Source of the DNA: Candidatus Altiarchaeota archaeon
Lineage (GTDB): Archaea > Altiarchaeota > Altiarchaeia > IMC4 > SCGC-AAA252-I15
Assembly: GCA_043813075.1 (NCBI GenBank)
Contig: JBDRLL010000009.1
Location: forward strand, 1-35,941
Length of the DNA: 35,941 nt
Direction: 5' to 3'
Shown here: positions 6,402 through 24,131 of the stretch, one piece after another
Position numbering within the stretch: position 1 is the first letter of the stretch
How the letters are laid out: each line of letters opens with the position of its first letter
The notes under the pieces: generated by a model
Seen by the model: only the letters and a program-made list of their open reading frames with translations
What the model was told of the DNA's origin: nothing
Database searches by the model: none
Program-made: the position numbers and the translations under genes

Positions 6402-8306
6402 ATGAATTGGTCTGCATTGAATAATGGCGTCCTAGTCTTCTTCATCTCGCTTATCGCATACCTGCTGACCTTATGCCCTACGGTCTATGGGGGCGATAGC
6501 GGGGATTTCATAACAGCAGCCTACACGCTTGGAGTACCACACCCCACCGGCTACCCACTGTACACGATCCTGGGAAAGTTGTTCACACTATTGCCGGCAG
6601 CATCCATCGCATACCGGGTGAACATGCTGTCAGCGGTCTCCGCCGCACTCGCGTCCATGATGGTGTGCATGACAGTATACGAGAGGGTGGGGAAGACTGT
6701 GCCGTCGATGGCGGCGGGTCTTGCGCTCGCATTCACAAGGCCTTTGTGGGGTGAGGCTGTTGTCGCTGAAGTCTACGCCCTGAACACATTCTTCGCAGCA
6801 CTTGTCTTTTATTTCGCCTTCAGGTTCAGGAAAGGCAGAGGCAGCGGTGACTTGAACATGCTCGCATTCTCCTCAGGCCTCGCGCTCACCAACCACCTTA
6901 GTTTCGCATTATACCTGCCTGCGATAGCATGCCTCGCCCACGACGGAAGGCCCCTGCGGGAATACAGGAGGCTGGCGTACTACTTCCTGATACCCCTAGT
7001 GATATACCTCTACATTCCCATGAGCGCCATGAGGGGGGGATATGTCTGGCATGATCCGACGAGTGCGTCAGGCCTCCTTGACTTCATAACAGCCAGGGAA
7101 CACCGGATGGTGCACACCACATCCGACATTGGAGCTGGTATTTCAAGGAGCATCGAGGGTTTGAAGGGGATTGTCTTGGGGCTCGGCTTCATGGCCCTGC
7201 TCGCCATTATCGGCGCATACACTCTGAGGGGGGACAAGGAGATTCTATTATCCACACTGCTCCTGGTTGCGGTCGAACTCGTCTACATGGGATTCCTCCA
7301 CAACGTCTCCATGGAGCTGGTCACCTTCGGGCTTCCAGTGACCGCGTTGCTGGCAGTCTACTCAGGCCTCGGATTCTCATACCTGATGGACAAGTCTGAC
7401 GAGCTGTTGAATGCCGGGTTCTTCACGGCCATGGTGCTCGCTGCAATCCTTGCATCATCAGCCTACGGGAACTATCACGTGTCAGACAGGAGTGAGAACC
7501 GTATCGCATACTACTATGGCCTGAACATCCTGAACAACCTGCAGCCGGATGCGTTATTGCTCATGGAGAACGACAACAACATATTCATACTCAACTACCT
7601 TCAGAAGGCTGAGGGCGTGCGCCCGGACGTGCTGCTGGTGGATAGAGTGTGCGTACTGAACGATGAGTTCTACGGGGAAGACGTTAAGAAGCTGGGGGAG
7701 GCTGGATTCTACGAGAGAAGGAGTAGTGTGGAGTATGATGCAGTCAAGTCGGGCAGGCCGGTGTACTACACCAACAGGGTCAGCGACCTGCCTGAGAAAG
7801 TCTTCCTACTACAGGAGGGGCTCGTGTACCGTGCATACCAGGAGGGGGATGTCCCATTGAAGTATCGCTGGGGGGATTACGGTTTGGAGTCTTCTCTTGG
7901 AGACTTTCACCTAGACTACTTCACGCGGGAGATACTGTCCACATACTATCTGAGGAAGGCTGACTCGCTCCACGCTGAAGGGAAGCTTAACGGCGCCATG
8001 TCCTACTACCGGAGGGCTTCTGACGCTGCAGGCAACATCATGCAGGCCCGCTACAACATAGCGTTGAGCTACATACAGAACAGGATGTACAGCAGGGCTG
8101 TGGGCGAACTCAACAAGGCGATAATAATAGAGGAGGATGCTGGAGCCCTAGGCAACCAGTGCTTCGTCCTAATACAGTTGGGAGACTTCTACACCGCCAG
8201 GAGGAATTGCGAGAGAGCCCTGGAGCTTAATCCAGGAGACAGTGTAGCGGAAGCCAACCTGGAGTACATCCGCTACATAGAAAGGCAGACGCTGCAAGTC
8301 ACGTGA
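6402..8306 (+). CDS. DUF2723/TMEM260-like membrane glycosyltransferase with C-terminal TPRs
   Basis: GDSGDFITAAYTLGVPHPTGYPLY, AEVYALN, LALTNH and NDN motifs; C-terminal TPRs (ARYNIA, ALELNPGD). Confidence 0.9.
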   Translation: MNWSALNNGVLVFFISLIAYLLTLCPTVYGGDSGDFITAAYTLGVPHPTGYPLYTILGKLFTLLPAASIAYRVNMLSAVSAALASMMVCMTVYERVGKTVPSMAAGLALAFTRPLWGEAVVAEVYALNTFFAALVFYFAFRFRKGRGSGDLNMLAFSSGLALTNHLSFALYLPAIACLAHDGRPLREYRRLAYYFLIPLVIYLYIPMSAMRGGYVWHDPTSASGLLDFITAREHRMVHTTSDIGAGISRSIEGLKGIVLGLGFMALLAIIGAYTLRGDKEILLSTLLLVAVELVYMGFLHNVSMELVTFGLPVTALLAVYSGLGFSYLMDKSDELLNAGFFTAMVLAAILASSAYGNYHVSDRSENRIAYYYGLNILNNLQPDALLLMENDNNIFILNYLQKAEGVRPDVLLVDRVCVLNDEFYGEDVKKLGEAGFYERRSSVEYDAVKSGRPVYYTNRVSDLPEKVFLLQEGLVYRAYQEGDVPLKYRWGDYGLESSLGDFHLDYFTREILSTYYLRKADSLHAEGKLNGAMSYYRRASDAAGNIMQARYNIALSYIQNRMYSRAVGELNKAIIIEEDAGALGNQCFVLIQLGDFYTARRNCERALELNPGDSVAEANLEYIRYIERQTLQVT

Positions 8307-10194: not shown

Positions 10195-10764
10195 ATGCGG
10201 TTCCAGCAGCAGAAGAGCAAGGCCTTGAACGACTACAGGGCGTCAGTCAGGGTGGGTGACGTGGACGAATCCCTGATACCCCTGCTGGATGAGATAAACA
10301 GGATGGAATCATACTACACGACATCAAGCTGCGGGGGGAGGATAGCGCTCCTGGAGGAGCTGGGCGGCAAGGGCTTGAACAGGTTCATCAGGAAATGGCA
10401 TGATAAGGCCAGCGTTGAAGACGTCATGAAAGCCATGGGTGAATGCAGCACTGAACTATGGTTCAAGTGCGAGCCCCCCATACTCCACGTGGTCGCGAAG
10501 AGTCTGGAGGATGCGAACCATTTCCTCCATGAGGCGAGGGAGGCTGGCTTCAAGAGAAGCGGGCTGCAGTCGTCAGGTGAAGACAGGAACGTGCTTGAAG
10601 TATTGAGCACCGAGTCCATCAACACACCCCTGGTGGTAGATGGAAAAATAGTTGTGGCAGAGGAATATGTGAGAATCCTTGTTGAAGACGGCAACAGAAA
10701 GCTTGAATCCGGTTGGGTTAAGATAGAGAGGCTCAGGGAGAGGCTGTCACGCGGCCCTGGCTAA
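10195..10764 (+). CDS. taw3: tRNA wybutosine methyltransferase Taw3/TYW3
   Basis: GDVDE.LIPLLD.IN, YYTTSSCGGRI, KWH, PPILHV, AGFKRSG. Confidence 0.95.
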   Translation: MRFQQQKSKALNDYRASVRVGDVDESLIPLLDEINRMESYYTTSSCGGRIALLEELGGKGLNRFIRKWHDKASVEDVMKAMGECSTELWFKCEPPILHVVAKSLEDANHFLHEAREAGFKRSGLQSSGEDRNVLEVLSTESINTPLVVDGKIVVAEEYVRILVEDGNRKLESGWVKIERLRERLSRGPG

Positions 10765-11718
10765 ATCCTGTTCCGGCCTCCGGGGCTCTACGCCAGTCCG
10801 TATCGCATTGTTGTAGGCGTAGGCTAGTGTGAGTGCCGCTGCTGTGGTGAACTCCGGCTGATGGGAGATGATGTTGCGGAATACGGGAGACCGTTCTATC
10901 GCGTCGAATATCATCGACGCCTGCTGCGACTGGGGGTCGACGCCGAAGTCCCGCTTCAAGTCTATGCCAAGTTCAGCGTCAACGCGCCTGAACTCCCTCT
11001 CCCGTTCAGCCATCGCGGCCTTAAGCCGCTCCATCTTAACAGTCCCGTCTTCAGAGTCTGAAGTGTCTGTGCCTCCGAAGCCAAGTATGTTACCGCCTGC
11101 CGGGCGGACGCCGCTGATGCGGGAGAACCATACGGGATCCAGGGACCTGGCTAGGAGCGTCATGGAATGAGCGAAGTCGAAGTCTTCACGCCGCTCGACC
11201 TCCGCCCTCGCCTCCACAGTAGAAGCTGCTACCACATACTTTTGGGCGTTGGGGTCGACTGACACAGCATGCAATTCATCATAGTAGTCTGCCTGGATTC
11301 CCTGCGCCCTCTTCTCCTCGACACGCCTTTTCGCGACCTCATCCTGGTTCTTCAACACAGCCCTGGATGACGCTACAAGATGCTTCTTCTCGACAGGACC
11401 GTCCCCCGCAATCCTCTGAGCGGACTCCTGCATGGAGTGAACAAGGAATTTCACCAGGTCAACGCTCTCGTCAGCCATATCCTCACGGGTCTTAACGCCC
11501 TGTTTTATCAGCTTCTTCCTGTTTCTCCTGAAGTCCTGGATGCGCCTGAAGATGCCGTACATCTCAGACTCCTCCCCAGAGACTATGTCAAGGTTCTTCA
11601 AAGCAATCTGCCGGGTAGCCTCGTCCAAACCGTGCCTGTCACCCTCAAGAATACTCCTGAACGTCTTCTCGATACGGCCTATAGGCTGGCCCGGATTCCG
11701 CTGAGCTTCCTGGGGCAT
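10747..11718 (-). CDS. Hypothetical helical protein (orphan)
   Basis: 323-aa ORF filling the taw3-rtcB gap, with a TATA-like TATTTAAG about 25 nt upstream; no family recognised. Confidence 0.7.
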   Translation of the reverse strand: MPQEAQRNPGQPIGRIEKTFRSILEGDRHGLDEATRQIALKNLDIVSGEESEMYGIFRRIQDFRRNRKKLIKQGVKTREDMADESVDLVKFLVHSMQESAQRIAGDGPVEKKHLVASSRAVLKNQDEVAKRRVEEKRAQGIQADYYDELHAVSVDPNAQKYVVAASTVEARAEVERREDFDFAHSMTLLARSLDPVWFSRISGVRPAGGNILGFGGTDTSDSEDGTVKMERLKAAMAEREREFRRVDAELGIDLKRDFGVDPQSQQASMIFDAIERSPVFRNIISHQPEFTTAAALTLAYAYNNAIRTGVEPRRPEQDLARAA

Positions 11719-11773: not shown

Positions 11774-13183
11774 ATGAAGCCTGAGAAAAAAAGAGACGGA
11801 GTATGGGAGTTCAGGGATGAGGGGATGAACGTTCCCGCCAGGATATACGCTTCAGACAAGCTCTTCAACGAGATTGAGGAGGGAGTCTACAAGCAGATAA
11901 GCAACGTCGCCAGGCTGCCGGGGATACTCGATGCCGCCATGGTGATGCCTGACGGACACTACGGGTACGGCTTCCCCATAGGAGGTGTCGCAGCATTCAA
12001 CATGGAGGAGGGTGTGATAAGCCCCGGGGGAGTCGGCTACGACATAAACTGCGGCGTCAGGCTGATGACATCCAACCTTCCGGCCAGCGAGGTCGTGCCA
12101 AAACTCAAGCAGCTGACAGACACCCTATTCGATAACGTGCCTTCCGGTCTAGGGAGCAAGAGCAGGCTAAGGTACAGTGAAGGCGAGCTGGAGGAGGTGT
12201 GTGTCGCAGGAGCCGGATGGGCTGTGGAGAAAGGCTTCGGCTTCAATGAGGACTTGAAGCACACGGAGGAGGACGGGTGCATACCCGGAGCAGACCCCAG
12301 CAAGATAGGCCAGAAGGCGAAGTCGAGGGGGAGGCCCCAGCTGGGGACCCTTGGTTCAGGCAACCACTTCCTGGAGATACAGAAGGTCGAGAAGATTTAT
12401 GACGCGGAAGTCGCGAAGAGGTTTGGGATAACAAGCGAGGGACAGGTCACAGTGATGGTGCACTGCGGGTCGCGCGGCCTAGGGTATCAGGTCGCAGACG
12501 ATTACATCGGAGTAATGCTCAACGCCGCGAGGAAGTACGGCATAAAGCTGCCTGACGACGAGCTCGCGTGCGCGCCATTGAAGAGCAGGGAGGCTGAGGA
12601 CTACATAGGCGCAATGTACTGCGCAGTCAACTACGCGTTCGCCAACCGCCAGTTCATAACCCACTGGGTGAGGGAGTCCTTCAACAGGTTCTTCGACGAC
12701 GCCGAACTCGACCTCGTGTACGACGTATGCCATAACATAGCCAAGTTCGAAGAGCACGGAGACTACGGGAAAGTCTGCGTCCACCGTAAGGGCGCTACAA
12801 GAGCATTCGCCGCAGGACGCAAAGAGATTCCAGAGGATTATAGGGACGTCGGCCAGCCCGTGCTGGTGCCGGGAGACATGGGCACAGCATCATACATCCT
12901 CGTCGGAACGGACACTGCCATGAAGGAGTCGTTCGGGAGCGTCTGCCATGGAGCAGGCAGGTGCATGTCAAGAGCAAAAGCCAAGAGGAGCGTGGACGGC
13001 GAACAAGTCAGGAGAGACCTGGAGCGTAAGGGGGAGGTAATCCGGGCGGCAAGCCACCACGTGTTGGCTGAGGAATGCAGCCAAGCCTACAAGGACGTGG
13101 ACGAAGTAGTCGGAAGCGTGAAGCTGGCGGGACTCGCGAAAATAGTCGCCAAAGTCAAGCCCCTAGGTGTGGTAAAAGGCTGA
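11774..13183 (+). CDS. rtcB: RNA-splicing/repair ligase RtcB
   Basis: MPDGHYGYGFPIGG, GYDINCGVR, LGTLGSGNHFLE, HCGSRG, HNIA, HRKGATRA, PGDMG, CHGAGR, AYKDV. Confidence 0.98.
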   Translation: MKPEKKRDGVWEFRDEGMNVPARIYASDKLFNEIEEGVYKQISNVARLPGILDAAMVMPDGHYGYGFPIGGVAAFNMEEGVISPGGVGYDINCGVRLMTSNLPASEVVPKLKQLTDTLFDNVPSGLGSKSRLRYSEGELEEVCVAGAGWAVEKGFGFNEDLKHTEEDGCIPGADPSKIGQKAKSRGRPQLGTLGSGNHFLEIQKVEKIYDAEVAKRFGITSEGQVTVMVHCGSRGLGYQVADDYIGVMLNAARKYGIKLPDDELACAPLKSREAEDYIGAMYCAVNYAFANRQFITHWVRESFNRFFDDAELDLVYDVCHNIAKFEEHGDYGKVCVHRKGATRAFAAGRKEIPEDYRDVGQPVLVPGDMGTASYILVGTDTAMKESFGSVCHGAGRCMSRAKAKRSVDGEQVRRDLERKGEVIRAASHHVLAEECSQAYKDVDEVVGSVKLAGLAKIVAKVKPLGVVKG

Positions 13184-13269
13184 AAAACACATAAAAACAC
13201 CCATGGACATTGTACAGCTTTTATAGTTTGGATGTGTATATATAACACTAAAAGCCCTATGAGTAAAAG

Positions 13270-13611
13270 ATGGACATCGACAACATACAGTCATTAGACG
13301 AGCTGGAAGTCGAAATCCCAGTCCAACTGGAAGATGGTTCTATAGAGAGGAGGATACTCTCCTGGCAGGAATACTACATTCTAGAGCAGAATAAGAGCCG
13401 GGGGAAGGGTAAAATGGATATTGACGACATAAAGTCTTTAGAAGACTTGGAAGTGGAGTTCCAGGTCGACGACGGGAAGGGCGGTAAGAAGGACGTCAGG
13501 ATGACGTGGAGCGAATTCATGACCTCAGACCAGGTGCCGAAGGAATTCATGATGAAGATGTTAAAGTCGAGGGAAGACGACTTATCCAACAAAGACAGGA
13601 GGGTTAAATAA
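13270..13611 (+). CDS. Small acidic protein made of two related 'MDID' modules (A+B fused)
   Basis: MDIDNIQSLDELEVEIPV...W.EY repeated at Met49 as MDIDDIKSLEDLEVEFQV...W.EF; homologous to the ORFs at 14696 and 14841. Confidence 0.85.
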   Translation: MDIDNIQSLDELEVEIPVQLEDGSIERRILSWQEYYILEQNKSRGKGKMDIDDIKSLEDLEVEFQVDDGKGGKKDVRMTWSEFMTSDQVPKEFMMKMLKSREDDLSNKDRRVK

Positions 13612-13613
13612 AG

Positions 13614-14690
13614 ATGGCTACAATGACGATTAGGCCGGGAGTAAGGACTCCTGGGGATTTGAGGGTTGACGGGGTGCCGCCAGAAGTCTCAGGACATCAG
13701 CCAAAGCTGCCTGCAGAACTCGCCAGGCACGGGACAGACGCGGACGCTCACGCTACTAGGGTGAACAGGATACTAGGCGACTACAAGGAGCAGGAGAGGC
13801 GCGGTGGAGGAGTGCCGATGGTGCACTTGAGGTACGCCAGCAGCCCATGCAACATCGCTGAAGCACACGTGGCCGGAGCCGCAGTAATGAGGCTCGTAGG
13901 CAAGTGGGAGGACGCAGAGAAGGCTATGACAGACATACTGGGCGCGAGAGAGAGCATGGACTCAGGGAAACCACTGCTGATACCTAAGGGTAGCGCTGAG
14001 AGAGACTATCTGGAGGAACAATTATCACACTTCTACAGGGACTGGGCAAGACAATTAAGGACAACAGGGGCTACACCAGACCAGGTGGCTGCTAGGACAA
14101 ACCAGGCAGTACAGGCAGCATCAAGGATAGGAGACACCACCAGAAGGACGACAGCCCTAAGCGAGATGCTGACAGTCCACGGAGTAGCCCAAATGGGCCA
14201 GGGACAATACGCTACCGCAGAATCCACGCTAATGGCAGCGGAAAGCACCTACGCGGCGAGAGTCGCATTAGGGGGACCAGCAGACCCGCTACTGTGCGAG
14301 GGCATACAGAGGAACCTTGCTGCCTCAAGGATAGGCCAGGGAACGACCCCGAAGGTGCAGGAGGGCGTTAGGATGCTGGGCGCGATACACGACAGCTACG
14401 GCGCAGCACCGCCAGCAAGCAGGAGCGAGGACGTGTACGTGAACCTGCTTTACGGACAGGCGCTGCTAAAACAGTCAGGCATAGTCGAAGGATACCCTGT
14501 CCCGCCGGCTGATGAGACAATCACTCAAGGCCAGGCCGTGATAAACGCGAAGTACGGTGCAGACAGGACCAGGAAGGCGGAGCATGAAAGTTTCCTAAAG
14601 TCACGGGAACAGCTGCACGACACGGGTTCGGCCGTACTGCAGGAGAGGACAGACCTACAGGACTTCAAGGTCTACGTGGTCAAGAGGTAG
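13614..14690 (+). CDS. Helical TPR-like protein C1, paralogue of the N-terminal part of 15055-17847
   Basis: Starts 2 nt after the upstream stop; motifs align with C2; TPR-like QMGQGQYATAESTLMAA. Confidence 0.85.
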   Translation: MATMTIRPGVRTPGDLRVDGVPPEVSGHQPKLPAELARHGTDADAHATRVNRILGDYKEQERRGGGVPMVHLRYASSPCNIAEAHVAGAAVMRLVGKWEDAEKAMTDILGARESMDSGKPLLIPKGSAERDYLEEQLSHFYRDWARQLRTTGATPDQVAARTNQAVQAASRIGDTTRRTTALSEMLTVHGVAQMGQGQYATAESTLMAAESTYAARVALGGPADPLLCEGIQRNLAASRIGQGTTPKVQEGVRMLGAIHDSYGAAPPASRSEDVYVNLLYGQALLKQSGIVEGYPVPPADETITQGQAVINAKYGADRTRKAEHESFLKSREQLHDTGSAVLQERTDLQDFKVYVVKR

Positions 14691-14695
14691 ACGAA

Positions 14696-14830
14696 ATGGA
14701 CATAGATGACATTAGAAGCCTTTCAGACATCCAAGTCCAAATCCCCATAAAGAACCAGGACGGGAGCATAGGGAAGAGGGTGCTCAACTGGGACGAGTAC
14801 ATGGTACTTATAGCCCAGAAGGAGAAATAA
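14696..14830 (+). CDS. 44-aa 'MDID' module A' (MDIDDIRSLSDIQVQIPIKNQDGSIGKRVLNWDEYMVLIAQKEK), absent from the ORF track
   Basis: ATG 14696, TAA 14828-14830; aligns without gaps to residues 1-40 of the 13270 ORF. Confidence 0.85.
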   Translation: MDIDDIRSLSDIQVQIPIKNQDGSIGKRVLNWDEYMVLIAQKEK

Positions 14831-14840
14831 TCTAAGCGAA

Positions 14841-15053
14841 ATGAACGGCATGGATGTCGACAAGATATCATTCGAAGAGCTTGAAGTAGAAATCGAAGTG
14901 GATGACGGGAAAGGCGGCAAGAAAAAGAAGATAATAAAATGGGGTGACTTCATGAATTCGGAAGACATCCCTAAAGAACAAAGGATGACTATACTCGAGG
15001 CCAGGAGAAAGAGCCTCGAAGAAAAATCCAAGAAAACAGAGGTCAAAAAATAA
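14841..15053 (+). CDS. 70-aa 'MDID' module B'
   Basis: LEVEIEVDDGKGGKK...WGDFMNSEDIPKE matches LEVEFQVDDGKGGKK...WSEFMTSDQVPKE of the 13270 ORF. Confidence 0.85.
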   Translation: MNGMDVDKISFEELEVEIEVDDGKGGKKKKIIKWGDFMNSEDIPKEQRMTILEARRKSLEEKSKKTEVKK

Positions 15054-15054
15054 G

Positions 15055-17847
15055 ATGGCGACGGTAACCGTAGACACTCAATTCAGGCAATTCAGGACTG
15101 ATGCTCCAGGAACAGGGACAGAAAGGCTGATGGGCCACCTGCAGAGGTCGGCTCCGGACGTTGAAGCGCAGACACAACTATTGCGCGACATAGCGAAGGC
15201 TTACGACACTGCCGGCGGCGGAACGCCCCTGACGATACTAAGACACGGCGGGACTCAACTCAACGGAGACCAGGCCCACATAGTCCTAGCAGCATTCATG
15301 TACCAGAACGGACGGCACGAGGACGCGGCGAAAGTCCTGGAAGACAGGCTTACGGAAAGGATGATTCCGGGAGACGCCAGCTCGCCACTGAGGATGACAG
15401 ACCCGGACATGATAAGGCAGTACAGGCAGAACATCATAAAAATACGGATGGATCAGGCCAGGGTTAGGGCCGGCGCCGGAGGCGCTGACACGATCAGCGA
15501 CTGCGAGACCATACTGGGGAAGGCCATGCAACAGGCAAGCGCCATGACCGGGGCGATGGGGACTGCGGAAGGCGACGAGAAATACGGCTCCATGCGGGAC
15601 GCACAGAACCTGCTCGGATGCATACGATTCCAGGAAGGCAAGCACATGGACGCTGTGGCGGCATTCGACGCCGCCCTGGGACAGCACGGGAACGTGACGG
15701 GAAGCAGTCCAGCGGATGCCGAAGGCCAGAGGCTGCGGCGGAACAAGGCCGCGGCACTAATCAAGTCAGACAACATGACCCACGTCCAAGAGGGCGTTGA
15801 AATCCTTGCCACAATCAGGAGCGAATGGAATACTGCGGGAACACCAGACGCGCAACGTTCCGACAGCGGCATGATGAACATGATATACGGGATGGCGAAA
15901 CTCAAGCACGCAGGGTCAAGCCCCCGCGGCGCAAATTCAAGCACATTCTCGGACGCAGACGTGGATGGTTTCATCGTGGAGACTGAGAACATAATAAACG
16001 CCAGACACGCCGGAGACAGGACACTCGCCAACACGAGGAAAGACCTGCTGAAGGAGAGGGAGAAGTATTACGACGACAAGGACGTTGAAGTGACTGAGGT
16101 CATAAACCTGACTTCACGGGAGCTCATCGACGGCGAAGTGCTCGCCACAACAAGCAGCACAAGAACTCCAGGACCAGGACCATCACCGCCGGTCACAACA
16201 CCGCCAGGCTCACCGCCAGTCACAACACCGCCAAGCACCAGTACGACGACGCCTGACCCGAGGCTTGCTCCAGGTTTGGCTGGCGCCAGGGCTAGGGCGA
16301 CGGAGACTGTGGAGACACTGCTCAAACACGATCACACTTACAGGACACTATCAGAGACGAGCGGCAAAGACCCTGCGCTCGCTACCGCAGACACTGCGAT
16401 AGCCGCGAAATACAGGGACGGCCTGATAGAATTGTATGCTGCAAGGGACTCGCAGATGCAGGGCGACCCGAGGGTTGAGGCCGCTTTAACGCGTGCGAGA
16501 GACTTGTTCAGGGACTGCAGGATACATGAGGCAAGCCCGCTAGTCAACGGTGCTACGGGGAGAAGCCGGCTGAGCGGCGCATTCACCCGGGCCATGGAAA
16601 CGGAGACCGAGCTCGCAGGCCACTACCGTCTGATAGGGGGCAGGAACTCCGACAGAAAGACGGCCGCAGCCCAAGCAAGATCATACCACAACGAGGCTGA
16701 AACCATCATGAGGACCCAGTACGGGGCAGACTACGACGCAGGCAACGCCGCTGCGATAGGGCGGCGTGCGGACGCCAGCGACTACATATTCTTCAAGGCA
16801 GCTCAGGCCGAGATGCATGTGAGATGCAGGAGCCAGTTGTGGACTAGAAGCCACTACAGGGCTGCTGACAAGGCGCTGGACGAAGCCGGGATAGCTGCCA
16901 ACGAGACCACTGCAAGCAAGGGAGTGATGCTCACTGTAACATACCTCGCCAAGGCAAGGGCAGGCATAGAATACGAGCAGGAGGCCCTGCTGACGAGGAA
17001 GGGCAAGTTCAGGCACCTGGACCACGCTGCTGAAAGCGCCAACGACGCGCTCACTGAGACAGGCAACAGAAGCAACTTCGCTTCAGAGCAGGAGCAGTCC
17101 GCAATGAGGAACCACGCTAAAGACTCGCTCATAGGAGTCATAAAACACCTGGGGCGTGAGAGCGACAGGCTAGGGAGAAGCTGGATACCTGGCGGGAGAC
17201 AACGCGTGAGAGACGCTGCAAGGGAATCAGTAAAGCATGTCGTAAAGGCGTGCAGCGACGACTTTGACGCGATGACTGCGGCAGGCCACACGTACAGTGG
17301 GTCAGACCCGACATATGAGGTAGACTACATATTCAAGGCGTCACTGGGCACTCTAGCGAGGATAGAGCGTGGCAGAGGAAACCTCTATGACGCGCTGCAG
17401 CTGGAACACCAGAGAGGCCAGTTGGACGGCGGAGCAAACCACAGGCCAGTGGACGATGAGGGAATCCGGAGGGCTTACAACAGTGGGATGCAGAGCGGAA
17501 ACTCGCAGGACTTCTACAGGGCCATGCTCATACACACCGGCACCTCAGCGTCAGCAGCCTCAGCGCTAAACGCAGGACAGGTGGAAGGCCAAGGCAGGCT
17601 ACAGGCCGAGACCATGGCAGGCAACGTCTCAACAGGAGGTTCAATAGACTTCCACGAGAGGATGCTATTGTACGGCATAATGAGGAGCGAGAGGAGCGAG
17701 TACGACAGGAAAGTCTCATCCACAAAGCCGGCGATACTCACCGAGAACACTGCTAGAAGAGACTTCGTGAACAACATTTCAGCAGGGTTCACTGACGACA
17801 CCTTCGAAGTCGAAGGCGGCGGACAGGTGAAGGACCTCAGGATATAA
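15055..17847 (+). CDS. 930-aa helical TPR-like protein C2: C1-like domain, Pro/Thr linker, C-terminal extension
   Basis: Starts 1 nt after the upstream stop; TPR-like NLLGCIRFQEGKHMDAVAAFDAAL; linker TPGPGPSPPVTTPPGSPPVTTPPSTSTTTPDP. Confidence 0.88.
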   Translation: MATVTVDTQFRQFRTDAPGTGTERLMGHLQRSAPDVEAQTQLLRDIAKAYDTAGGGTPLTILRHGGTQLNGDQAHIVLAAFMYQNGRHEDAAKVLEDRLTERMIPGDASSPLRMTDPDMIRQYRQNIIKIRMDQARVRAGAGGADTISDCETILGKAMQQASAMTGAMGTAEGDEKYGSMRDAQNLLGCIRFQEGKHMDAVAAFDAALGQHGNVTGSSPADAEGQRLRRNKAAALIKSDNMTHVQEGVEILATIRSEWNTAGTPDAQRSDSGMMNMIYGMAKLKHAGSSPRGANSSTFSDADVDGFIVETENIINARHAGDRTLANTRKDLLKEREKYYDDKDVEVTEVINLTSRELIDGEVLATTSSTRTPGPGPSPPVTTPPGSPPVTTPPSTSTTTPDPRLAPGLAGARARATETVETLLKHDHTYRTLSETSGKDPALATADTAIAAKYRDGLIELYAARDSQMQGDPRVEAALTRARDLFRDCRIHEASPLVNGATGRSRLSGAFTRAMETETELAGHYRLIGGRNSDRKTAAAQARSYHNEAETIMRTQYGADYDAGNAAAIGRRADASDYIFFKAAQAEMHVRCRSQLWTRSHYRAADKALDEAGIAANETTASKGVMLTVTYLAKARAGIEYEQEALLTRKGKFRHLDHAAESANDALTETGNRSNFASEQEQSAMRNHAKDSLIGVIKHLGRESDRLGRSWIPGGRQRVRDAARESVKHVVKACSDDFDAMTAAGHTYSGSDPTYEVDYIFKASLGTLARIERGRGNLYDALQLEHQRGQLDGGANHRPVDDEGIRRAYNSGMQSGNSQDFYRAMLIHTGTSASAASALNAGQVEGQGRLQAETMAGNVSTGGSIDFHERMLLYGIMRSERSEYDRKVSSTKPAILTENTARRDFVNNISAGFTDDTFEVEGGGQVKDLRI
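16183..16233 (+). repeat. Intragenic 24-bp tandem repeat x2 (SPPVTTPP) in the Pro/Thr linker
   Basis: tcaccgccggtcacaacaccgcca (16183-16206) and tcaccgccagtcacaacaccgcca (16210-16233), one mismatch. Confidence 0.9.
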
Positions 17848-17855
17848 GCAACACA

Positions 17856-17890
17856 TTGGGGGCTTAATCCCCCCAAATCATTTTCTTTCT
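17856..17890 (+). terminator. Hairpin plus T-rich tract ending the cassette operon
   Basis: TTGGGGG/CCCCCAA stem (17856-17876) followed by TTTTCTTTCT, between convergent genes. Confidence 0.6.
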
Positions 17891-17898
17891 GAGTAGGA

Positions 17899-18040
17899 TC
17901 GCATGCTTCGGCAGGGCAGAATCACTTCTCCTCAATACTCTCCTCAACCCTCATGCCGAAGCACCTGCTCCCTACGGTCGCATGCTTCGGCAGGGCAGAA
18001 TCACTTCTCCTCAATACTCTCCTCAACCCTCATGCCGAAG
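17899..18040. repeat. Exact 63-bp direct repeat (17899-17961, 17978-18040) duplicating the aroB' 3' end, with a palindromic junction
   Basis: tcgcatgcttcggcagggcagaatcacttctcctcaatactctcctcaaccctcatgccgaag occurs twice with a 16-bp spacer. Confidence 0.95.
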
Positions 18041-19029
18041 TGCCGTCCGCCCTCCTCCAGGTACGCGAGAATCCGATCCCCCTTCTTAATCTTCGCGACA
18101 GACAAAGGACTCCCACCCTCCTTAACAAGGTTGATGGTCTCCGCATTCTGCAAGAGACTCTTAATCTTACGGCCGTCCTTAACAGCCTCCACCAGGATCA
18201 GCGGCCTCTTCTCTATCTTCAGCCTGCCGACTATCAGGACGCGCGTGTTCCCGTCCTTGTCTACGGCCAAGACTTCATCGCCGGCAGACAAGTCGCTCAA
18301 GTACTTGGTCTTCCCGCCGGGCACGAGAGTGTACGCGTGCACCGGACCCGCGTTCACCCTGAAGGGCCTGGCTGCGACGTACTCCGTCTGGAGGGTCTCG
18401 CTGTGCACCAGCAGGAGGCCGTTGCTCTGGCTGCCCACCAGCATTCCCTCACCCAACTTGAACATGCTGGCAGTGTCGACGCACACGCGGTCGCCCATGC
18501 CAACCTGCCTGACGTCAGAAACCTCGACCACACAGAGGCCGAGACGCTCCTGAGACAGTGACTCAACATACTCCCTTATCTTCTTCACAACCTTCCCGTC
18601 AGCGTTGACTAGAACCCCGTCAGCGCCGACCTCAAGGGTCTCCAGGACGGTCTTAGCCTCGTCGAAAGAGCAGACCTCGACGATGACCTTCGCCTTCTCC
18701 TTCTGCAATCCCGCCAGGATGTTCTCCAATGGGATGACCCTCCAGTCCGTGGCCTTGAAGACGACGTGGCTGAATGACTTCCCGTCCTTCACCACCTTCT
18801 CCTCCCCGGACTTGTCTTCGATTACTGTGAGCGAAACATCCCTGCCTATCTTCAAGTCCGCGGAATCCCCCTCAGAGACGACTGTGATGCCTCCGAGCCG
18901 ACGGACCTTATCCTCCTCACCGGGGTTCACCAGGACCGCGTCCACACCGGACTCCAGTCCGCCGGTAATCCTCTTCTTCCGTTCATCCCAGACGGCGTCT
19001 CCGTCAGCCCTAACCCATACCAGCTTCAT
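18001..19029 (-). CDS. aroB': 3-dehydroquinate synthase II (archaeal type)
   Basis: DWRVIPLEN, LEVGADGV, GDRVCVDT, RPFRVNAGPVHAY, LQNAETI, GRHFGM. Confidence 0.96.
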   Translation of the reverse strand: MKLVWVRADGDAVWDERKKRITGGLESGVDAVLVNPGEEDKVRRLGGITVVSEGDSADLKIGRDVSLTVIEDKSGEEKVVKDGKSFSHVVFKATDWRVIPLENILAGLQKEKAKVIVEVCSFDEAKTVLETLEVGADGVLVNADGKVVKKIREYVESLSQERLGLCVVEVSDVRQVGMGDRVCVDTASMFKLGEGMLVGSQSNGLLLVHSETLQTEYVAARPFRVNAGPVHAYTLVPGGKTKYLSDLSAGDEVLAVDKDGNTRVLIVGRLKIEKRPLILVEAVKDGRKIKSLLQNAETINLVKEGGSPLSVAKIKKGDRILAYLEEGGRHFGMRVEESIEEK

Positions 19030-22033: not shown

Positions 22034-22393
22034 ATGAGTTACGTAAAATTTGAAGTTCCAAAGGAACTACAGGAAAAAACACTAGACGCCATAGAACAGG
22101 CAAGAGACACGGGAAAGGTGAAGAAGGGGACGAACGAAGTCACCAAATCCGTTGAAAGGGGAAACGCAAAACTCGTAGTCATCGGAAGCGACGTTGAACC
22201 ACCGGAAGTGGTAATGCACATACCGATGCTCTGCGAAGAAAAGAAGATACCGTACTTATACATCCCAAAAGCAGACATAGGAGACGCAGTAGGCATACAC
22301 GTGCCGACCGCAACATGCTGCATAACAGAGGAAGGCAAGGCGAAGGAACTCGTAAACGAGATAAAAGAGAAGCTCGAGGAGATAAAGAAGTAA
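22034..22393 (+). CDS. rpl7ae: 50S ribosomal protein L7Ae
   Basis: [38 protein letters not shown]. Confidence 0.98.
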
Positions 22394-22394
22394 A

Positions 22395-22586
22395 ATGGTC
22401 CTAGCAGAAGTCGTAAAGATAATAGGCCGCACGGGGATATACGGGGAAGTGATGCAGGTCATGTGCAAGATAAATGACGGCGAGAACAAGGGTCGCGTGA
22501 TAAGGAGGAACGTCAGGAACCCCATAAGAAAAGGCGACATACTCGACCTGAGGGAATCCGAGAGGGAGGCTAAGCCCCTCAACTAA
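22395..22586 (+). CDS. rps28e: 30S ribosomal protein S28e
   Basis: AEV..IIGRTG..GEV.QV, RNV..P...GDIL.LRESEREA. Confidence 0.96.
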   Translation: MVLAEVVKIIGRTGIYGEVMQVMCKINDGENKGRVIRRNVRNPIRKGDILDLRESEREAKPLN

Positions 22587-22588
22587 AA

Positions 22589-22933
22589 ATGGACTGCAAT
22601 TTCTGCGAAAGGAAGATACCAAAGGGTAGTGAAGTCATATACGTCACCAAGAAAGGCAAGGCACTGTACCTATGCTCCAGCAAATGCGAGAACAACATGG
22701 TCAAGCTCAAGAGAAAAGCAAGGAAGACCAAGTGGACTGCGGAATACAGGAGGGAGAAGGACGCGAGACTGAAGCTCCTCGAACAAGCCAGGAAAGACAA
22801 GAAGACTGTTGAACCCAAAAAGGAGGAGAAAGCCGAAGCAGCTGAAGAAGATGAATTGGGGGAGGAACCCAAGGAAGTGAAGAAGGCTGCGGTAAAGGCA
22901 AAGAAGAAGACCTCGAAAAAAAGTAAAAAATGA
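22589..22933 (+). CDS. rpl24e: 50S ribosomal protein L24e with a charged C-terminal tail
   Basis: CNFC..KI..G, CSSKC, KWT. Confidence 0.93.
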   Translation: MDCNFCERKIPKGSEVIYVTKKGKALYLCSSKCENNMVKLKRKARKTKWTAEYRREKDARLKLLEQARKDKKTVEPKKEEKAEAAEEDELGEEPKEVKKAAVKAKKKTSKKSKK

Positions 22934-23367
22934 AGACCCTCATAATAATCAGGCCATACGCAGTGCAGAGAGGCCTGGTAGGCGAGATCCTGTCAAGGTT
23001 CGAGAGGCATGGCATAAGGATTGCCGGGCTTAAGGTCACGAAGATGACCAGGGAGCTGGCCGAGGAACTATACGCCCAGCACAGGGGGGCTGAATTCTAC
23101 GACAGGCTCATCAAGAACATGACTTCCGACCCGCTGGCAATAGCCGTCCTGGACACCGACGTCCTGGACCCTGACAGTGCGGTGGCACTGGTCCGCAAGA
23201 TAATAGGCGACACCGACCCTGCGAAGGCTGAGATGGGCACTATACGCGGAGACTTCGGGCTTAGGATAGACCAGAACATAATACACGCTTCAGACAACAG
23301 TGACAGCGCGAAGAAGGAGATACCAATGTTCTTCAAAAAAGAAGATCTTGTTGAATACACCAATTAG
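22930..23367 (+). CDS. ndk: Nucleoside diphosphate kinase
   Basis: VQRGLVGEILSRFE, GTIRGDFG, NIIHASD (catalytic His). Confidence 0.95.
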   Translation: MKTLIIIRPYAVQRGLVGEILSRFERHGIRIAGLKVTKMTRELAEELYAQHRGAEFYDRLIKNMTSDPLAIAVLDTDVLDPDSAVALVRKIIGDTDPAKAEMGTIRGDFGLRIDQNIIHASDNSDSAKKEIPMFFKKEDLVEYTN

Positions 23368-23374
23368 GGATAAA

Positions 23375-23806
23375 ATGACTACGATATACGATGTACCGGT
23401 AAGGGAACTTATAGATGAGGCAGCCAGGGACCTGAAGGATAACGTGAAGCTTGAGCGCCCCGAATGGAGCACATACGTCAAGACGGGAGTGAACAAGGAG
23501 CGGATGCCTGAAGACCAGAACTGGTGGTGGACGAGGGCAGCGTCAGTGCTGAGGAAGATATACATTGAAGGACCCATCGGAGTCCAGAAGCTGAGGGTCA
23601 AGTACGGCGGCTCCAAGAACAGGGGGCGCAAGCCGGAAGAGTTCAGGATGGCCAGCGGAAAGATCATAAGAACCATCCTCAAGGAGTTCGACGATGCGGG
23701 ATTCACTGAAAAGGTTAAGGGCGGCAGGGTGATAACCGCGAAAGGCCGCTCGTACCTGGACAAGATTTCAGCAAAGATAGAAAAGGGAGAAGATGTCGGA
23801 GCTTGA
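23375..23806 (+). CDS. rps19e: 30S ribosomal protein S19e
   Basis: Start reassigned to ATG 23375 (MTTIYDVP); PEW..YVKTG, WWWTRAASVLRKIY, GRVIT.KGRSYLD. Confidence 0.97.
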   Translation: MTTIYDVPVRELIDEAARDLKDNVKLERPEWSTYVKTGVNKERMPEDQNWWWTRAASVLRKIYIEGPIGVQKLRVKYGGSKNRGRKPEEFRMASGKIIRTILKEFDDAGFTEKVKGGRVITAKGRSYLDKISAKIEKGEDVGA

Positions 23807-24131
23807 CGAGCTAAGACAGAAGAGGATACGCCAGCTGGTGCAGCAGCAGTCCCAGCAGAATATTCAAGAACAGCTTCAGGAACAGATGAGGGCTGAGGAA
23901 GTCAACTCCCAGATAAAGCACATCGTCAGCAAGCTGATGGATTCTGAAGCCAGGGACAGGCTCAACAACATAAGGCTTGTAAAGCCGGAATTCGCGAGGC
24001 AGGTTGAAGTCCTACTCATACAGATGTATCAGACAGGGAGGATAAGGGAGCGTATGAACGACGAGACCTTCAGGGCAATCCTCGACAAGATAAGGTCAGG
24101 AAAGAGGGAAGGAACCATAACCAGGAAATAG
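23793..24131 (+). CDS. PDCD5-like (DUF122) DNA-binding protein
   Basis: ELDELRQKR, EARDRLNNIRLVKPEFA..VE..LIQ; usual neighbour of rps19e. Confidence 0.92.
   Translation: MSELDELRQKRIRQLVQQQSQQNIQEQLQEQMRAEEVNSQIKHIVSKLMDSEARDRLNNIRLVKPEFARQVEVLLIQMYQTGRIRERMNDETFRAILDKIRSGKREGTITRK

Follow-up and report, generated by a model that had tools for sequence, protein, structure and literature searches.

In bacterial secretion needles, two small proteins and a TPR-like chaperone work as a set, and the type III needle co-chaperones YscE/YscG or PscE/PscG form a heteromer with the needle subunit; in known defence proteins, TPR arrays serve as sensors. The TPR domain of kinesin light chain with tryptophan-acidic cargo peptides (6swu and 3zfw), as well as bacterial BtubC (5o01), forms a right-handed superhelix of helical hairpins with ~6–7 repeats. 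In the stretch of Candidatus Altiarchaeota DNA analyzed here (35,941 nucleotides; hereafter the window), we found a locus in which small acidic proteins (A and B) are encoded directly before a large protein (C) predicted to have such a superhelical fold. Our preferred explanation, to which we give about an even chance of being right, is a lineage-specific, fast-evolving operon of two tandem paralogous units encoding an obligate complex of small subunits with a TPR scaffold. The cassette was seen in only two genomes, and we present it as a lead rather than as an established system.

Organization of the locus

ORF reading placed two paralogous units, that is, five tightly packed genes in the order AB-C1-A'-B'-C2, on the + strand at 13270–17847, with intergenic gaps of 2, 5, 10, and 1 nt. 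The first gene (13270..13611) encodes AB, a 113-aa acidic protein (pI 4.6) in which module homology delimits an A module (13270–13407) and a B module beginning at an internal ATG (from 13414). It is followed by the genes for C1 (13614..14690; 358 aa), A' (14696..14830; 44 aa), B' (14841..15053; 70 aa), and C2 (15055–17847; 930 aa). Alignments divide C2 into an N-domain homologous to C1 (residues 1–360; 15055..16134), a Pro/Thr-rich linker evident in the translation (residues ~361–405; 16135..16269) with a 27-nt tandem repeat at 16183–16236, and a 525-aa C-domain (residues ~406–930; 16270..17847).

The small proteins are related both between and within the units: A and A' are identical at 21/44 positions (E 3e-16), B and B' at 31/65 (48%; E 1e-13), and A and B at 16/40 (E 6e-9), A and B being themselves paralogues of one ~40-aa module. 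The A-B fusion hinges on a single base beside a G5 run (13400–13404), just after which a TAA at 13410–13412, one base before the ATG of B at 13414, lies out of frame by one base; otherwise A and B would be separate genes. A and B are acidic (pI 4.3–4.9), B' having a pI of 6.3, and the alignment shows the conserved motif W-x-[DE]-[FY], represented in B' by W-x-[DE]-F-M together with a conserved VDDGKGGKK. The family scan gave no match of A or B to a DNA-binding domain, and the ESM Atlas matches of AB were at chance level (0.80).

Upstream of AB, an AT-rich stretch following the RtcB stop (13219..13246, + strand) contains TTTATA at 13221–13226 and TATATATA near 13238–13246, and TATA-like runs also precede the A gene of the sister species G001. 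We call this stretch promoter-like from a direct reading of the sequence against the archaeal TATA consensus, the promoter scan being of the sigma-70 type only. The B-to-C junctions are alike in both units (..TTAAATAAAGATGGCT.. and ..AAAAAATAAGATGGCG..) and correspond to ..GGAAAATAAAATGGGC.. in G001; all three share TAA-N(1–2)-ATG, a GGAGG/AGAGG-like motif precedes the start of each C protein, and C1 and C2 begin with MATMT and MATVT, respectively. C would be translationally coupled to B in each unit. Downstream of C2, a sequence scan revealed a hairpin with a 7-bp stem (5 G-C) and T-rich tails on both strands (17856..17889, with the stem-loop itself at 17856–17876), likely a terminator that serves both the operon and DHQS-II, a gene convergent to it. 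The order and 1–10 bp gaps of the genes, the two homologous but strongly diverged copies, the similar junctions giving MAT.T starts, the AT-rich region upstream, and the hairpin downstream had all been described in a sequence-only reading of this DNA, and each was confirmed here.

The neighbors are all housekeeping genes (TYW3, RtcB, DHQS-II, Pth2-like, and GluRS-like), and Rfam and tRNA scans of the whole window gave no matches. Contigs from three DNA runs covered the window in part. Immediately beside the cassette, 68 nt of the 3' end of DHQS-II are duplicated in tandem, and comparison with at least seven genomes of the family shows the cassette itself to be an insertion. A preprint (bioRxiv 10.1101/2020.07.22.215848) describes TPR proteins in viruses of this phylum. 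These features would suit what is left of an integrated provirus or other mobile element with cargo genes, a reading we nevertheless regard as highly improbable: the 68-nt copies adjoin one another and do not flank the cassette in the manner of att repeats, every ORF of the interval is accounted for with neither an integrase nor a PHROG match, no IMG/VR relatives were found, and the cassette is found at one and the same site in the two species of this genus. Moreover, the codon usage of the five genes is native, their scores falling at the 53rd–96th percentile among 1127 long ORFs of the genome.

Restricted distribution and fast divergence

The sister species carries a single-copy A-B-C unit in the same RtcB/DHQS-II slot, with its gene order conserved. 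Among the 61 genomes of the phylum searched, the cassette was present in two, both of one genus; elsewhere in the family, at least seven genomes have RtcB and DHQS-II as neighbors, 0.1–1.2 kb apart, and lack it, and in other genera the interval carries different cargo. In the explanation that we prefer, the RtcB/DHQS-II interval acquired the cassette in the common ancestor of a single genus.

None of the components had been assigned to a family from the sequence, and scans of Pfam, NCBIfam, PHROGs, and PADLOC likewise gave no match at curated cut-offs. Homologous-protein searches retrieved only C2 itself with C2 as the query (7998 scored candidates), only AB, B', and the B protein of G001 with profile A5 (22 candidates), and only C2 with profile A6 (8000 scored candidates); the last search missed the C protein of G001, and its reach is thus limited here. 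Exhaustive phmmer with C1 against 1.84 billion representatives gave three matches at E ≤ 0.001, namely C1, C2, and P0003, a 1751-aa protein of Ser/Thr/Asn-rich Ig-like repeats that was matched in 12 stretches and judged by eye to be compositional. Weak matches of profile A3 in longer frames of two further genomes (G006, E 0.004; G052, E 0.007) we attribute to chance. Scans of metagenome contigs (profiles A5 and A6) and of viral contigs of IMG/VR (A5 and A4) yielded no relatives, genome contigs searched with A5 yielded only that of G001, and among PDB sequences the best E value was 1.2 with A5, none reaching E ≤ 1 with A6. The literature consulted on tetratricopeptide proteins of Altiarchaeota does not deal with this locus, and our search found none on orphan genes of Altiarchaeum.

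Between the present genome and G001, 16 flanking genes are 53–80% identical (median, 70%), whereas the cassette proteins are identical at 25% (C2), 26% (C1), 26% (A'), 40% (AB), and 57% (B'). The cassette family thus changes far faster than its housekeeping neighbors, and the low identity of the paralogues, C1 and C2 residues 1–352 sharing 27% (BLASTP E 8e-22; 29% in a second comparison), reflects very fast change within one genus rather than great age. The earlier proposal that the three-part unit had been kept through a long period of divergence is not supported. A resembles A' more (48%) than either resembles the G001 copy (31–32%), and C1 and the N-domain of C2 likewise match one another better (alignment score, 228) than they match the C protein of G001 (61–71), which probably dates the duplication after the split of the two species; the signal from B is mixed, B' being 55–57% identical to the B protein of G001 (55% in this comparison) and 48% to B. 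Presumably, the cassette was duplicated in this species and the extra copy then lost its C-domain. Relaxed constraint, if these genes are dispensable, is another possible cause of their fast divergence.

Divergence of C far beyond that of all 16 flanking genes, a lineage-specific duplication followed by domain loss, and the different cargo in this interval of other genera would fit a conflict system, in which C acts as a TPR-type sensor or decoy for a protein of a virus or episymbiont, A/B act as regulators or caps, and an arms race drives rapid diversification and duplication. Such a system would overlap in architecture with the scaffold that we favor and adds a commitment to an immune or conflict function. 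A viperin-TPR system is mentioned for archaea in part of one article (PMC12988326). We nonetheless consider the conflict reading rather unlikely: with PADLOC-DB 2.0, seven proteins gave no match above noise (the best being AB to oMTase, an orphan methyltransferase, E 0.018, 11.7 bits), the family scans disclosed neither a nuclease nor an ATPase nor any other effector domain, relatives are absent from the viral contigs searched, and the locus, all of its neighbors being housekeeping genes, is not a defence island. Its fuller form, a previously unseen three-part archaeal module against viruses or episymbionts with a rapidly diversifying cytoplasmic TPR sensor C whose N-terminal arm is capped by the acidic beta-hairpin A/B, duplicated and sub-functionalized in this species of a subsurface archaeal lineage, seems to us unlikely.

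Fold of the C proteins and the predicted B–C complex

The TPR-like character suggested for the large proteins was borne out by fold prediction. The AF2 model of C1 (mean pLDDT, 72.3; pTM, 0.72) is all-helical at residues ~80–340, where 11 helices have pLDDT mostly of 84–96. Its best Foldseek match was the TPR domain of KLC1 (6swu_E; E 7.2e-4, prob 1.0, TMq 0.39), and VIA aligned it with many TPR proteins over 190–250 residues at Z 14.3–12.5, including BtubC (5o01_A; Z 14.1) and kinesin light chain (3zfw_B; Z 11.5), values near 13–14 showing for helical repeats the arrangement only. With its stacked helical hairpins, the modeled C1 is a generic TPR superhelix at the fold level. TPR models of Pfam stayed below their cut-offs in C2 (best, Fis1_TPR_N at 18.0 bits with a cut-off of 25 and TPR_14 at 15.2 bits with a cut-off of 23.5), and none was found in C1, or in the C protein of G001 at E 0.001; a BFVD fold search gave nothing at E ≤ 0.001. 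The C proteins are soluble and probably cytoplasmic: the 19-residue Kyte-Doolittle mean peaks at ~1.0, giving no hydrophobic segment, and the large partner, as had been noted, lacks a signal peptide, and also a membrane segment. Rap, PlcR, and NprR are among the structural neighbors of C1 (VIA Z 13.9–10.6), which recalls RRNPP-type peptide signaling by a TPR receptor and a neighboring small-peptide gene. This reading, already disfavored, is barely plausible, since many unrelated TPR proteins reach an equal Z range, Pfam and NCBIfam show no HTH or phosphatase domain in C1, C2, or the C protein of G001, and A/B are folded modules of 44–70 aa encoded upstream of C and carrying no export signal.

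The counterpart of C1 is the N-domain of C2 only, to which hhalign detected no similarity in the C-domain (Prob 0.2). The C-domain is collinear with that of the C protein of G001 (25–26% identity in two alignments); its AF2 model is poor (pLDDT 45.1) but all-helical, and ESM Atlas gave TPR-like leads only (0.82–0.85, TM ≤ 0.41). It is probably also a TPR-like solenoid, in which, given the poor model, a hidden enzymatic domain is possible.

A complex model of C1 with AB scored 0.62, against 0.03 for the best of three controls. Of 80 solved complexes, 58 scored at least this high, as did 2 of 110 mismatched pairs, counts that hold only roughly here because a custom alignment was used, the input being an alignment of C from only three sequences, AB without an alignment, and one modeling job. 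The runs had at least 74% of their contacts in common, with a partner pLDDT of at least 69, and the predicted interface joins C1 residues 45–94 and 136–143 to AB residues 47–101. The B module alone was confidently placed on C1, and the A module, which the proposal of an AB–C1 complex had included, was not. We know of no similar solved complex, which makes memorization by the predictor unlikely. Residues 59–78 of C1 are disordered in the monomer model and lie within the interface in the complex model, which would fit folding on binding.

The model suggests that the B module binds the N-terminal arm of C1 (residues ~45–94) and may be an obligate partner of C. A strand of its beta-hairpin (AB 59–65) would pair with C1 strand 69–75, just after the conserved GGG-x-P (G65, G66, and P68 being invariant across the three C N-domains), and the Trp-containing helix region (AB 77–101) would pack against the first helices of C (C1 45–56 and 83–94). 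Further invariant residues (N234, A236, A237, I240, P266, A268, R270, S271, N277, N311, and A312) cluster in the last three repeats, the most conserved part of C, and this surface may thus be left free for a third ligand. Each unit encodes two small acidic paralogues, A and B (joined into one protein in unit 1), together with a soluble TPR-like C, and their complex would act as a sensor or as a capped scaffold for protein interactions.

The strand augmentation predicted here, with two small proteins encoded directly before a TPR-like C, could be read with the roles reversed, C being a dedicated TPR chaperone that keeps A/B soluble until they assemble into another structure, much as in the sets of bacterial secretion needles. 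This is quite improbable in view of the size of C (358–930 aa), far above that of its supposed clients, the highly charged A/B with no hydrophobic or polymer-like segment (maximum 19-residue hydropathy mean, 0.03 in AB), the absence of secretion or pilus genes nearby, and the faster change of C than of B, unusual for a chaperone. The same translational coupling and predicted binding would be compatible with a toxin-antitoxin or effector-immunity pair, in which the acidic small proteins neutralize a harmful C. We judge this very unlikely: the models of C, poor for the C-domain of C2, reveal helical repeats and nothing resembling a toxin fold, searches for TA and PADLOC families gave no match, A/B gave no DNA-binding match, and C1 keeps its small partners though it lacks the entire C-domain. 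Of the adaptor or antitoxin-type modules envisaged in the sequence-only reading, binding of the small to the large protein is thus upheld in silico; the antitoxin-effector idea gained no support, C having only helical repeats, no recognizable effector or enzyme domain, and no TA or defence matches.

Significance and relation to known systems

If a small beta-hairpin protein does clamp the N-terminal arm of a TPR solenoid as predicted, the locus would define two previously unrecognized protein families and, with them, a compact unit of protein interaction. It also illustrates cleanly how quickly genes can change in an archaeon not yet cultivated: within one genus, a cassette was apparently inserted between two housekeeping genes and duplicated in tandem, with one copy losing a domain and having two of its genes fused, and the C paralogues are down to 29% identity beside neighboring genes at 53–80% between species.

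Among known systems, the RRNPP receptors likewise place a ~350-aa TPR solenoid beside a small gene; unlike them, C has no effector or HTH domain, the small proteins have no export signals, the small genes come before the large one, and the host is archaeal. The YscE/YscG and PscE/PscG sets similarly align two small proteins and a TPR-like protein in a row, whereas here no secretion apparatus is nearby, C is 3–8 times larger, and there is no link by sequence or family. In type II toxin-antitoxin systems, too, translational coupling links a small acidic protein to a bigger partner, which here it is predicted to bind; neither the family scans nor the C1 model showed a family or fold of toxins or antitoxins, and the poorly modeled C-domain of C2 may hold a hidden domain. 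With TPR scaffolds in general, the resemblance of C is generic to the fold, no Pfam TPR cut-off being reached and the TM-scores being low. As with kinesin light chain, the partner of C is small and acidic with a conserved W-x-[DE]-[FY]; unlike the peptide in the concave groove of kinesin light chain, the Trp region is modeled against the N-terminal arm of C1, where a strand would be added.

Organization of the cassette and its modules

The five + strand genes of the cassette, AB (13270–13611, 113 aa), C1 (13614–14690, 358 aa), A′ (14696–14830, 44 aa), B′ (14841–15053, 70 aa), and C2 (15055–17847, 930 aa), are separated in the ORF list by 2, 5, 10, and 1 nt, in agreement with the sequence-only reading, which had placed five closely spaced genes at these coordinates. 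The similarity that it had seen between the two B-to-C junctions was also borne out, each consisting of a TAA stop, one or two bases, and ATGGC, and a GGAGG/AGAGG-like purine motif lies 8–14 nt 5′ of the C1, C2, and A′ starts. Likewise, the AT-rich upstream region corresponds to the spacer between RtcB (11774–13183) and AB, which contains TTTATA and TATATATA runs, and the downstream hairpin to a 7-bp hairpin (17856–17876) followed by a T-rich tail.

The proposed homology between the two units was confirmed by comparisons of C1 with residues 1–352 of C2 (27% identity, E = 8e-22), of A with A′ (21/44 residues identical, E = 3e-16), and of B with B′ (31/65 residues identical, E = 1e-13). Moreover, A aligns with B (16/40 identical, E = 6e-9; also in the A/B-module alignment, A3), and the two are paralogues of one ~40-residue module with the pattern M-D-I-D-x-I-x-S-L-x-x-L-E-V-E, a Gly-containing turn, and then W-x-[DE]-[FY]. 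Both are acidic, and B has an extra C-terminal helical extension (PKE..M..L). C1 is the counterpart of the C2 N-domain only; C2 continues through a Pro/Thr linker, with an internal 27-nt tandem repeat, into a 525-residue C-domain, for which a profile comparison detected no similarity to the N-domain. None of the cassette proteins contains a hydrophobic segment.

The A-B fusion hinges on a single base: the TAA at 13410–13412, immediately 3′ of a G5 run (13400–13404) and one base 5′ of the B ATG (13414), is shifted one position from the reading frame. The fusion may reflect a genuine mutation or a sequencing error in the homopolymer. A purine-rich GGGGGAAGGG stretch 5′ of ATG 13414 could also permit separate translation of B.

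Predicted fold of C and its interface with the B module

The AF2 model of C1, computed from a 3-row alignment (mean pLDDT, 72.3; pTM, 0.72), shows eleven confidently placed helices at residues ~80–340, preceded by a poorly ordered region (1–78). The model falls among TPR superhelices (Foldseek E = 7e-4; VIA-align Z ~14), values that for helical repeats are evidence of arrangement only. Its structural neighbours include kinesin light chain, BtubC, Rap, LGN, and APPBP2; RRNPP-like peptide signalling was considered a less likely role for the cassette than that of a complex built on C as a scaffold. The C2 C-domain was modelled poorly as all helices (pLDDT, 45.1), and its TPR-like Atlas neighbours serve as leads only.

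The model of C1 together with AB passed with a score of 0.62, the highest-scoring of its three controls reaching 0.03. Of 80 solved complexes, 58 attain the pass mark, and of 110 mismatched pairs, 2 do so; these counts apply here only as approximations, a custom alignment having been used. The runs had at least 74% of contacts in common, with a partner pLDDT of at least 69. The confident predicted interface is formed by the B module (AB residues 47–101) and the N-terminal arm of C1 (45–94, 136–143), and the closest predicted pairs, C1 70–74 with AB 59–63, would indicate strand pairing. The arm, which just follows an invariant G-G-x-P, is disordered in the monomer model and lies in the interface of the modelled complex, consistent with folding on binding. 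The A module received no confident placement in the complex model. These predictions support binding of the B module to C1. The reversed assignment of roles, with C acting as a chaperone of the small proteins, is regarded as less likely than C serving as the scaffold.

Restricted distribution, insertion site, and rapid divergence

The sister species of the same genus (G001) has one unit in the same order at the same RtcB/DHQS-II (3-dehydroquinate synthase II) site, encoding A (48 aa), B (68 aa), and C (921 aa), the last being collinear with full-length C2 at 26% identity. Profiles of the A/B module (A3) and the C N-domain (A4) gave convincing matches in only 2 of the 61 species genomes of the phylum in the searched collection, and A3 gave two further weak ones. 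An exhaustive search of 1.84 billion representatives with C1 retrieved nothing beyond C1 itself, C2, and a single repeat protein, the last judged to be a compositional match. Word-based searches, metagenome and viral scans, and a genome pattern scan revealed no additional relatives; near-identical fragments of the locus itself occur in three metagenome runs (one of biofilm, two of groundwater) belonging to two studies, and one of these runs is possibly the source sample.

The flanks are housekeeping genes, namely a FEN1-type nuclease, TYW3, RtcB, and DHQS-II (18001–19029, − strand) by Pfam, and Pth2-like and GluRS-like genes identified by eye and kept in relatives. Seven further genomes of the family, representing four genera, have RtcB 0.1–1.2 kb from DHQS-II, as counted from 19 DHQS-II loci with 1.5-kb flanks, in the rest of which RtcB is outside the flank or the contig ends. 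Unrelated genes occupy the interval in two other genera (G004 and G007). These results indicate that the cassette was inserted in the ancestor of one genus, and the insertion site is a variable convergent intergenic slot. By eye, the G004 interval (locus L037, 2140–6331) encodes a 904-aa protein with a terminal HELAH-type motif and a 209-aa protein, and that of G007 (L035, 2020–5054) a 230-aa cyclophilin-like protein, a 209-aa homologue of the G004 one, and a 562-aa unknown.

When 37 window ORFs were compared with the 22.8-kb G001 contig, 21 were matched. The 16 flanking genes among these are 53–80% identical (median, 70%), as against 25% for C2, 26% for C1, 26% for A′, 40% for AB, and 57% for B′. 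A/A′ and C1/C2 N-domain are mutually closer than to the G001 copies, which indicates that the duplication is probably younger than the species split; B gives the reverse signal, more weakly. The C copies nevertheless share only 29% identity. Codon usage is genome-typical in all five genes, indicating that they are residents and not recent arrivals; a mobile-element remnant is considered a less likely reading of the cassette than the scaffold complex.

Two ORFs in the syntenic span have no G001 match. One (6402–8306) encodes a 634-aa protein, unrelated to the C family, in which a TMEM260-like O-mannosyltransferase domain is fused to canonical TPR repeats, and it gave no tblastn match on the syntenic contig. 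The other (10747–11718, − strand), flanked by TYW3 and RtcB, encodes a 323-aa orphan that matched nothing in Pfam, PHROG (viral families), or PADLOC (anti-phage defence models). The equivalent G001 slot holds a 280-aa orphan (locus L004, 10867–11709, + strand) with no detectable similarity to it, and a 452-aa orphan (L004, 3524–4882, + strand) additionally lies between DHQS-II and the Pth2-like gene of G001. The housekeeping neighbourhood thus has several slots occupied by unrelated orphans. Elsewhere, 22034–24131 has the lowest GC (0.47) and highest AT-skew (0.49) of the window and carries five small + strand ORFs, 62–80% identical in G001.

Adjoining the cassette terminator is a 68-nt tandem direct repeat (17894–17961 and 17973–18040; 97% identical, 79-nt period), a second copy of the last 13 codons of DHQS-II, its stop, and 28 nt downstream. 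A 109-nt contig from a groundwater run covers the join (17932–18040), and the DHQS-II-to-C spacing in G001, only 79 nt, has no space for the repeat, which could have arisen through slippage or represent a recombination scar.

A candidate scaffold complex

The best-supported reading of the cassette is an obligate complex of small subunits with a TPR scaffold, in which the small subunits and C would be made stoichiometrically via translational coupling. Invariant Asn, Arg, and Ser residues mark the conserved distal repeats of C (residues ~230–312), which probably engage a further partner. Its rapid divergence, its duplication, and the variability of its insertion slot are hints that the cassette has a role in conflict; PHROG, PADLOC, and Pfam scans found no defence, toxin, or mobility signature in it, and housekeeping genes surround it. 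A toxin-antitoxin pair is considered less likely than the scaffold complex. Uncultivated archaea commonly carry orphan operons, and this one is of value for its concrete, testable predicted interaction and strikingly rapid evolution. Collectively, the cassette is a real, orphan, genus-restricted operon that defines two undescribed protein families and has an interaction supported by modelling; its architecture varies an established pattern in which a TPR scaffold is paired with a small partner.
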